UHGV virus genome: UHGV-0130034
Direction: 5' to 3' (one strand)
Length of the DNA stretch: 39,707 bases
From: a virus
Shown here piece after piece: positions 1-4,427 of the stretch. Position numbers and translations under genes: made by a program. The notes beneath the pieces were generated by a model that searched no databases, was not told where the DNA came from, and saw only the letters and a program-made list of their open reading frames with translations. Every line of letters begins with the position of its first letter. Position 1 is the stretch's first letter.

Positions 1-6
1 AACCTA

Positions 7-69
7 ATGATGAATGACGGTAAGCAACAATCTACCTTTTTGTTTCACGATTACGCGCAACACCCCTGA
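7..69 (+). pseudogene. sbcB: Displaced native 5' end of sbcB (exonuclease I): codons 1-16 (MMNDGKQQSTFLFHDY), then reads into phage DNA and stops after 20 codons
   Basis: atgatgaatgacggtaagcaacaatctacctttttgtttcacgattac matches the recalled SbcB N-terminus; divergence from the attR-side continuation begins after position 55. Confidence 0.8.
32..55. repeat. attL core (direct repeat of attR core)
   Basis: ctacctttttgtttcacgattacg versus ctaccttcctctttcacgattacg at 39565-39588. Confidence 0.8.
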
Positions 70-109
70 GAGCCGCCATGAACAAGGGTTTCATAATTTG
101 TGATTTTGG

Positions 110-131
110 TTTGGTACGCAATTTGGTACAC
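110..131. repeat. Putative integrase arm-type binding sites (two direct copies of TTTGGTACRC)
   Basis: tttggtacgc (110-119) and tttggtacac (122-131); the same decamer recurs three times upstream of int at 39370-39413. Confidence 0.55.
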
Positions 132-457
132 AACACAATTTTCACTTCAGTGGGTAGTCATCAAACTCACCATAACGAGCATCGTTGATGATGTATGTGA
201 TCACCACAAATATCACATCTGGACTAGTTCCGTCTTCATGCGCAGGTATCTGTTCATGCCTACCTGTCTGCAAACCAGTAATAAGCTATTACAGTGTGAT
301 AGTGATGCATCAACTACGATAAATGCAGAGAAATGATGCAGTGGTGGGCGGACTGGATTGATAAAAAGGTGGAGTGAACGACATTATGAACAACAGGAGA
401 ACACACAAAACCTCGCAAAATTACAAAGATTTGTGTGTTAGTACTTATCATTGCGAT

Positions 458-2404
458 TTAAAGAATAATTCTTTCAACCTTCCAAGTTGCAGATCTACTT
501 CCTGAAATTCCAACTCCATTTGAATCTTTGAGAAGAATTCTAAATGATGTTTCTGTTACCAAATCATACGTTGCATTTATTGCTGCGCCATCTCCTATCG
601 ATATTGAGATAAAATCAGGCACAACTCCAAGTCCGTGAGTTATTATTTGTCCATTTGAATAAACCCCAGTTCCTATTTTAGTCGTTGCATACCCGGCATT
701 GTTTGCAAGGACAACATTAACCGAATTTGCTCCTAATTTAGCAATCTTCCTATCAGATGAAATCTCTGTAGATTGTATTGCATTATTTGAAATAACTGCA
801 TCTTTTATAGCCCTGAAATCTCCAGGTGTTCCTGATACAGCATTAACAAGTATTGCATACTGCATACTTCTATCACTTCTTTTATTGCCGAAAGCATTAC
901 CGCAAATTGTTGTCCCGGTAAATCCAGATGCTCCCGTGTTATCAAGAAGAATTCCGCACCTATATGTATTTGATGTATCAGAAGGCAAACCTATACCTCT
1001 TATGGAATTATTGGATACTATATTATTATCTGGCTTGACATTTGCATTATTGCAGTAAATGCGAATTCCAACATCACAAAATGCATCTAATACATTATCA
1101 GATATAACATTACCCGCTCCCCACACATCAATACCCATAAACGAATCAGCACCATCTCCAAAAAATTTATTTTGAGTAACTATTGTTCCGCTACCCCTAA
1201 TCAATATAGCAGGCCTTGGAATGCTTGAAGTCTTTTTGCTATCATTGTAGCCATGATTATCGTTTATATGAGATTCCCCCCCCGCACTATCTATGCAGCA
1301 ATTACACGAATCTATTATATTTTTATTTATCCTTACATAGACAGAATCGTGTTTTATACCTGTAATAAAATTTGATATGGAATTTGATACAAAACTAGTT
1401 GCCTTACATGGCAATGAAACGCCATGTATAGCGTCCTTAGACGCTCCTATGGCAACAAAATGTATCCCTGTAACAATTGCTGGGTTCTCATTAGATGATG
1501 TGTCACCTATGGTAATAGCAAAAGAATTCTCATCTTCAGGACCATCAATTGTTAATATCGTTTGTGGCGTATATCCTTGAGATATTTGCGATCCATTTCC
1601 TGAACCAAACCCTCTCATACTTACAAAAGATGGGATTCTTAGTTTTTCTGTTACTCTACAGTTGCCCCCCCAAAAAAATTCCTCTTTAACATGGGCAGCG
1701 GCCAGCATGATTGGAATTGTATCATCTTTAACTCCATCAAGCGTCGCTCCATAATTTCTAAGGTCATTGGTTTCATACCCATTTAAATAACCAATACATC
1801 TCCATCCTGTTGAGTTATATCTGGCAAATTTATCATCTGGGGGAACAGTAAAAGGAGGAACTGTCATTTCTCCTCCAGTTATTTCATTTTCATATACCCA
1901 AAACAACCCATCATAATCTTTGATTGCGCATCGGTTGTCACGAATGATATTTTGCTTGTCATAGTTCCCACAATATGAAAAACCAGTTGCTAATTTCTGT
2001 AAATTTGTTCCTGATGCTGAGTTTATTAATGATGCGCCATTTTCGCTAGTTAATACATTATTTAGAGGGTCAGGATCATACTTCAGCACATTAGGAAAAT
2101 AGAACTGCTGCGCACCGTACGCATCATAAACAGCCATAGAATGGCCTTGCACAGTTACGAACTTGGCAATCTGTCCGTTATATACCGGATATCCGGCAGC
2201 GTTAATGATTATTGGTTGCGAAACAGGAACGTGAGAACCGTCTTCGTTCTCTACATAAACCTGAATCTGGTTTTCAGGATTTACAGGGTCAGTGTCAATT
2301 TTACCGATATAAATTTTGCCATTGGCAACGGCTTTAAAAGAACGAGCCATAGTGAAGAGTTGCGAAGGCATCGATACGATCACATTGGCTGTAATGTCTG
2401 TCAT
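458..2404 (-). CDS. gp9: Tailspike protein: P22 gp9-like N-terminal head-binding domain fused to a divergent receptor-binding domain
   Basis: N-terminus MTDITANV...[34 protein letters not shown]...[12 protein letters not shown] matches recalled P22 tailspike residues ~1-110; remainder diverges. Confidence 0.9.
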
Positions 2405-3995: not shown

Positions 3996-4427
3996 TTAGT
4001 CTTGCTTTGTTGATGGTATAAGAGATGCGTTTGCCTCTTTTGGCTTCAAGGTATACATCCCACCATTAAAAGGATCTACAGCAAGCCAACCAATTAACCC
4101 ACCAAACACAAGGTTTCCACCAATATACCAACCATTAGCATTGGCTTTGATTGGCAGGGTAACTGGTTCGTACCCATCCTTTTCCATAGTGATCTGGTAG
4201 CTCTTTTTGCCAAAATAACTACCATCTGACTTGGCAAGAGTTACTCCTTGTGGAGTCTTGCCTTGCGCAACAATTACGCCTGATTCATCTTTTACCTTAA
4301 AGCTCGCACCGGAAGGGTTGCTGTTCACTTGCACAAGTTGCGTTTCATCACCAACAATAGTTGCGCACCCAGATAACATCATAGCACCAGCAACGACGCC
4401 AATAATCCTCTTCATATCAATTTCCAT
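3996..4427 (-). CDS. Predicted lipoprotein, likely lysogenic-conversion moron (alternative start at 4415, MKRIIGVVAGAMMLSGC)
   Basis: Signal peptide with lipobox LSGC; occupies the position between gp16 and mnt where P22 carries sieA/hkc. Confidence 0.7.
   Translation of the reverse strand: MEIDMKRIIGVVAGAMMLSGCATIVGDETQLVQVNSNPSGASFKVKDESGVIVAQGKTPQGVTLAKSDGSYFGKKSYQITMEKDGYEPVTLPIKANANGWYIGGNLVFGGLIGWLAVDPFNGGMYTLKPKEANASLIPSTKQD

Follow-up and report, generated by a model that had tools for sequence, protein, structure and literature searches.

The stretch of DNA analysed here (the window) is the 39,707-nucleotide virus genome UHGV-0130034, and its element of interest is a tailspike gene at 458..2404 on the minus strand, a single open reading frame (ORF) with an ATG start that encodes 648 amino acids followed by a stop codon. 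The window comprises an entire P22-like prophage, that is, a Lederbergvirus-type temperate phage, and the gene encodes its single tailspike. Copies of the gene in two E. coli genomes (98.5-99.0% DNA identity) are annotated 'phage head-binding domain-containing protein'. A Pfam scan of the tailspike revealed Head_binding (PF09008) as the sole domain, with residues 1-112 aligned to profile positions 1-112 of 113 (E 3.2e-66). BLASTP comparison with P22 gp9 (AF217253) gave 85/112 identities (76%) over residues 1-112; the alignment stops exactly at the sequence KYDPD, and nothing significant was found past residue 112. At the DNA level, 31 phage records match the gene only over its first 335-337 nucleotides, and sequence matches to solved structures are confined to residues 1-117, the best being Sf6 gp14 (7sg7), followed by several P22 entries. 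The segment encoding the P22-type head-binding (particle-anchor) domain, with KYDPD at its C-terminal end, occupies 2069..2404 (minus strand), and these comparisons show residues 1-112 to be a standard head-binding domain, of the kind that plugs into a P22-type tail hub. An earlier note on this DNA had held that only the first ~110 residues match P22 gp9, and that the remaining ~540 residues, rich in Gly, Asn and Ser, differ from it; the domain boundary, the identity to gp9 and the composition given below agree with both statements, and the one detail that the note lacked is the strand.

The receptor module, residues 113-648 (536 residues), contains 10.8% Gly, 10.4% Ile, 9.5% Ser and 9.3% Asn. 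An hhalign comparison of the receptor-domain profile with P22 gp9 returned a probability of 0.3%; no sequence homology was detected to gp9 residues 113-667, the part that contains the catalytic acids. The junction and neck, at the start of the module (residues 113-141; 1982..2068, minus strand), mark the point at which homology to the tailspike of Escherichia phage KKE7M sets in (from residue 114) and from which the GC content is 34-37%. The anchor has a GC content of 43.2% (42% at third codon positions, GC3), the receptor module 36.6% (GC3 22.6%), and the rest of the window 48%. The close relatives of the module (KKE7M, and the metagenomic proteins P0006 and P0015-P0023; 45-49% identity) carry a Tail_spike_N (PF18668) anchor, once together with T7-tail (PF03906), and no P22 anchor, while more distant family members have still other N-termini. 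Because the nearest relatives stand behind other phage anchors, the receptor domain is a swapped module, and residue 113 onward is shown, at the level of sequence, to have been gained by recombination at the KYDPD junction. The assembled tailspike (at least 98.5% identical) was found in prophages at three integration sites, namely sbcB/dacD, ybhB/bioA and torT, and the backbones of at least the window and OkiPb01694 prophages are unlike over much of their length. The tailspike neighbors ybhB/bioA in E. coli OkiPb01694 and torT in E. coli A35, and these differing sites argue for separate prophage acquisitions.

Searched alone, residues 113-648 gave no match in Pfam and none to a PHROG tail family (E up to 0.1); an NCBIfam search with the full-length protein gave no family. 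The receptor domain matched no solved structure by sequence, and the family profile reaches, in the PDB, only the N-terminal cap motif of GH55 glucanases. The pectate-lyase-like family PF12708 does not match the window protein; it is matched by 4 of 16 family members (best E 8e-13), via the N-terminal cap motif. When 1.84 billion representative proteins were searched exhaustively with HMMER, 13 relatives were recovered, nine of them at E ≤1e-30. A word-index search with the family profile gave 13 strong matches and added close relatives that are 45-48% identical across 99% of the domain. The phage collection contains a single full-length relative, the uncharacterised KKE7M tailspike (PQ356295 25056-27125; 45.8% identity), from a phi92-like Justusliebigvirus, with homology that spans residue 114 to the C-terminus of the receptor module. 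With this nearest phage relative at 46%, near-identity to a characterised tailspike, which would have spoken against the divergence put forward earlier, was not encountered. The family, as defined here, comprises the window protein, P0002-P0023 and the KKE7M tailspike. Its signature, SC-x2-CID-x-AG-x-ESH-x3-NHG, KFFGDG, DAF and NKR-x-DR, plus a C-terminal HG-x4-P...F-x-(I/L) domain, is present in full in the window protein. Judged by these comparisons, the receptor domain belongs to a rare, undescribed family that is common to phi92-like and other phages.

The receptor part was modelled as a monomer with AlphaFold2 from a 16-sequence alignment (mean predicted local distance difference test score, pLDDT, 80; predicted template modelling score, pTM, 0.73). 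The neck (residues 113-136, the first 24 residues of the model) is of low confidence and poorly defined. Ahead of the helix, a small beta-strand domain is predicted at residues 142-207 (1784..1981, minus strand; its strands fall at positions 31-93 of the receptor domain, pLDDT about 70-84), and outside the close relatives (45-49% identity) this domain is not conserved. Many short strands in succession then build a right-handed parallel beta-helix that is capped at its N-terminus (residues 208-567; 704..1783, minus strand) and is presumed to be the glycan-binding and catalytic body. The model closes with a C-terminal beta-sandwich domain (residues 575-648, HGLGVVPDF...; 461..682, minus strand; strands at receptor-domain positions 463-532, pLDDT about 86-91), which is conserved family-wide, distant members included. 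Structural matches to the model are headed by the solved tailspikes of P22, Sf6, HK620 and Det7, all of which are depolymerases. The receptor domain is thus predicted to adopt the standard tailspike fold, in line with the beta-helix anticipated in the earlier note; the profile and structure search that the note had suggested found the tailspike likeness in the modelled fold and no solved structure by sequence. Since the beta-helix fold is common to hydrolases, lyases and epimerases, the enzyme chemistry, and with it the 'different enzymatic activity' proposed earlier, is not decided by the fold.

The conserved motifs of the family lie in consecutive rungs of the predicted helix: SC-x2-CID-x-AGGESH-x3-NHG (residues 366-385), KFFGDG (413-418), LDAF (439-442) and NKRSDR (507-512). 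In the alignments, the best-conserved stretch is residues 370-385 (1250..1297, minus strand). The columns corresponding to D372, E377, H379, H384, R403, K413, D417, D440, R509, D511 and R512 do not vary in the 16-sequence alignment, and in a 15-sequence alignment they vary little or not at all. Each of 12 natural variants departs from the window protein at 2-10 residues, and no motif residue is altered in any of them. From this conservation, all eleven residues are candidates for a catalytic role, and D372, E377, H379, D417 and D440, together with the conserved Lys and Arg residues, likely constitute a candidate active site.

The full-length tailspike gene is present in only 2 of 5,426 complete E. 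coli genomes (OkiPb01694 and A35), compared with 1,132 for the P22-type anchor sequence. OkiPb01694 is a bovine Shiga-toxin producer, typed as O8:H4 by ECTyper (PMC12613899). In OkiPb01694, A35 and A20, three polysaccharide loci were found in a row: the colanic acid locus, a galF-gnd Wzx/Wzy rhamnose locus, and the O8 ABC-transporter locus at his. The O-antigen genes of O8 and O9 strains lie between gnd and his (PMC7685785), and ECTyper reports O8 only, despite the extra locus. The extra galF-gnd locus of OkiPb01694 consists of rmlBDAC, wzx, an acyltransferase, four glycosyltransferases and wzy. Its wzy (NZ_AP042564.1 2,410,827-2,412,032) is an intact 401-codon ORF encoding many hydrophobic segments, which is represented in RefSeq by a 244-residue hypothetical protein. 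The O8 (wzm/wzt/wbd) and galF-gnd loci of A35 are identical to those of OkiPb01694. In OkiPb01694, what separates this wzy from gnd is a decayed group II intron reverse transcriptase together with an ISAs1 transposase, and in A20 both wzx and one glycosyltransferase of the galF-gnd locus are split.

The extra locus occurs in 5 of the 5,426 genomes and O8 wzt in 302; O8 genes were present in all three of the extra-locus genomes whose flanks were inspected. Co-occurrence with the tailspike was assessed with chimeric queries that joined either the extra-locus wzy or the O8 wzt to the anchor sequence. The wzy-anchor query revealed that, of the five extra-locus genomes, OkiPb01694 and A35 are the only ones with any P22-type tailspike gene. 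The wzt-anchor query returned 1,380 records, compared with 302 and 1,137 for its two parts searched separately, which corresponds to ~59 O8 records with a P22-type tailspike gene; among the matches listed there are 58 other O8 genomes, 16 of which show a second match. Only OkiPb01694 and A35 have the receptor domain of the window, and the other ~57 of these ~59 O8 genomes carry different ones. A Fisher test on the presence of the receptor domain in 2/5 extra-locus genomes versus 0/297 other O8 genomes gave p = 2.2e-4.

A third host was found through protein clusters. The tailspike cluster (91 sequences) includes EGX04328.1 of STEC_MHI813, a 222-residue fragment that corresponds to residues 427-648 (221/222 identical) and was called inside a 464-kb contig of the MHI813 draft genome; from this position, the MHI813 gene is either frameshifted in an old assembly or truly truncated. 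The Wzy cluster, whose listed variants occur on about 240 contigs, includes EGX05184.1, named STEC_MHI813, and the Wzx cluster includes the nearby EGX05190.1, presumably from the same genome. MHI813 is given as O8:H19 (PMC3491183), having first been reported as O-non-typeable (PMC4267768). The latter phenotype would fit an outer glycan that masks the O antigen, which is offered only as a suggestion. Four further tailspike-bearing isolates are named O8:H49. Among the genomes that could be checked, carriers of the tailspike are restricted to O8 strains with the second locus. The serotype prediction of the earlier note stands insofar as the typed carriers are O8, but it is too simple, since nearly all O8 genomes with a P22-type tailspike have other receptor domains.

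These observations are best accounted for, at moderate confidence, by an imported-module tailspike of a P22-like phage whose substrate is the second-locus glycan of O8 strains. A trimer of the beta-helix would bind and cut the host surface polysaccharide, as other tailspikes do, and the cutting would allow the phage to reach the outer membrane. The host range would comprise E. coli O8 strains with the additional galF-gnd Wzx/Wzy locus, and the rhamnose-containing product of that locus, a glycan of the group-4-capsule or K-lipopolysaccharide (K-LPS) type, would be the most likely receptor and substrate, in preference to the O8 polymannan. The second glycan, and not the O8 mannan, is probably the target, because ~57 O8 genomes carry other receptor domains and both carriers share a rare locus. 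A bolder form of this proposal, plausible enough to state but held tentatively, is that the receptor domain founds a new glycan-depolymerase family, outside Pfam, PHROGs and the PDB, whose E. coli target is a hidden, Wzx/Wzy-dependent, rhamnose-containing K-type glycan of O8 strains, possibly K8 (the O8:K8:H4 reference strain is G3404-41, with its galF-gnd region under accession AB811598). If this were true, genome-based O-typing would mispredict phage host range, and the tailspike would provide a specific probe and depolymerase for the hidden glycan.

Several points weigh against this explanation. Adsorption to the glycan and its cleavage are both steps that we infer, the catalytic residues were chosen by conservation in a fold that does not part hydrolase from lyase, and the trimer is assumed, the model being monomeric. 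The O8, gnd, ugd and wzz proteins of A35 are identical to those of OkiPb01694, which probably makes the two strains a single lineage, and the statistics accordingly overstate independence. In addition, all four hosts with a checkable locus or serotype, plus the O8:H49-named isolates, are O8. A scan of JGI metagenome contigs for the extra-locus Wzy, which gave one partial match elsewhere and did not recover the tailspike sample 3300055598, weighs neither way.

The uniform O8 background leaves room for an alternative in which the receptor domain is an O8-specific polymannan endomannanase and the extra Wzx/Wzy locus only a linked lineage marker. Every typable host fits this alternative (OkiPb01694 as O8:H4, A35 by its O8 wzm/wzt/wbd genes, MHI813 as O8:H19, and the four O8:H49-named isolates), as do the O8 genes in 3/3 of the extra-locus genomes inspected. 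It is nevertheless judged unlikely: an O8 mannanase does not sit well with the other receptor domains in ~57/59 of the O8 genomes with P22-type tailspike genes, nor with the confinement of both carriers to the five-genome extra-locus subset, and MHI813 has the locus as well. Less probable again is a receptor domain that only binds the glycan, or modifies it without backbone cleavage, for example by removal of a substituent. The family-invariant acidic, histidine and basic residues are arrayed in successive helix rungs in the manner of active-site grooves, they are unchanged in the 12 natural variants, and the leading structural matches are known depolymerases, all of which argue against such a non-cleaving role. 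Degradation of colanic acid, suggested by a match of residues 1-435 to phrog_8280 ('tail spike protein with colonic acid degradation activity'; E 8e-108), is very improbable and this label was rejected, since the match vanishes with residues 113-648 alone (which have no PHROG tail match), so that the score stems from the shared head-binding domain and the label is inapplicable, and since nearly every E. coli has a colanic acid locus, a poor fit to a gene found in 2/5,426 genomes.

By its anchor, genome context and predicted fold, the window protein is a P22-type tailspike, and it would act as the Sf6, HK620, P22 and Det7 tailspikes do; by sequence, it falls outside the P22 endorhamnosidase-domain family. 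It shares the PF09008 anchor with the Lederbergvirus-type proteins P22 gp9, Sf6, HK620 and CUS-3, being closer still to Sf6 and CUS-3 than to P22 (76%). The gene occupies the same position as those of P22-type tailspikes, after the immI (ant/arc/mnt) region and beside the attachment site, the recombination junction is the same KYDPD, and the order of anchor, beta-helix and C-terminal domain is likewise shared, the fold of the window protein being predicted. The receptor domain of the window has no detectable sequence relation to the endorhamnosidase domain of P22 or to any solved tailspike, and unlike P22-type tailspikes it is predicted to have a further small beta domain ahead of the helix. 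The match to Det7 (Dettilon) gp208 (PDB 6f7k) has only 14-16% identity and a root-mean-square deviation of 6-10 Å to the model, and the Det7 match scores barely exceed those of unrelated beta-helix enzymes (GH87, 34.8; AlgE4, 34.7), such that catalytic equivalence is not readable from the match. The KKE7M tailspike and its metagenomic relatives keep all family motifs and differ from the window protein in their anchors; at 46% identity, the glycan specificity of the KKE7M tailspike may also differ. The bacterial exopolysaccharide protein WceF (PDB 6tgf) matches tailspike residues 8-232 (E 1.5e-9). It was rejected as a relative of the receptor domain, the match being to a head-binding-like N-terminus and 6tgf not being recovered by the receptor-domain profile; a head-binding-like domain is thus also present in a non-phage protein.

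The remaining features of the window concern the prophage setting. The P22-type tail and ejection genes were identified by Pfam families on metagenome contigs, in the annotation of the OkiPb01694 prophage and among the window ORFs. The exact tailspike protein was found on two human-gut metagenome contigs, where it adjoins dacD-sbmC-yeeA-yeeX; upstream of it lie the P22 coat, gp4, gp10, tail needle (gp26), gp7, gp20, gp16 and arc/mnt/ant region. Outside the tailspike gene, positions 1..274 make up an attachment region of the 'phage 2851' (sbcB) type. They are 94-95% identical to sequence that Stx1/Stx2 phage records label 'prophage attachment site (type 2851)' or 'duplication due to insertion', and to the attP of mEp234. 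By this match, the P22-like prophage shares its integration site with some Shiga-toxin phages. The flank from the stop codon to the prophage boundary (317..457) is common to the OkiPb01694 and A35 prophages, whose alignment to the window is unbroken from 317 across the gene; below 317 the three sequences part, and the match of phage IME10 to the window likewise starts at 317. Close to the integrase end of the window, ORFs of at least 100 codons include no serotype-conversion genes. A 143-residue ORF with a lipoprotein-type signal (…MLSGCATIV…) was observed at 3996-4427 (minus strand), where it is flanked by the gp16 homologue and the mnt/arc/ant region. The same position holds a 'peptidase associated/transthyretin-like domain' protein in the A35 prophage and a Rap1a/Tai immunity protein in that of OkiPb01694, and it is a variable cargo slot near the tailspike.

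It is the receptor domain of a tailspike that determines the strains open to infection by a phage, and such domains also serve as reagents for typing and as depolymerases. The window protein adds to them a rare receptor-domain sequence family that has neither a curated model nor a solved structure. Prophage tailspikes with a conserved anchor and an exchanged receptor domain that tracks the host surface glycan are well documented (Pas et al. 2023; PMC10408124), and as such modular exchange is well established, the gain from the present case is incremental. In contrast to the serogroup-matched tailspikes of that study, the glycan tracked here seems to be the product of a second Wzx/Wzy locus of O8 strains, and not the typed O antigen. 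The window thus offers a concrete case from O8 E. coli, bovine Shiga-toxin producers among them: phage host range there probably depends on a glycan other than the O antigen that genome-based serotyping reports.
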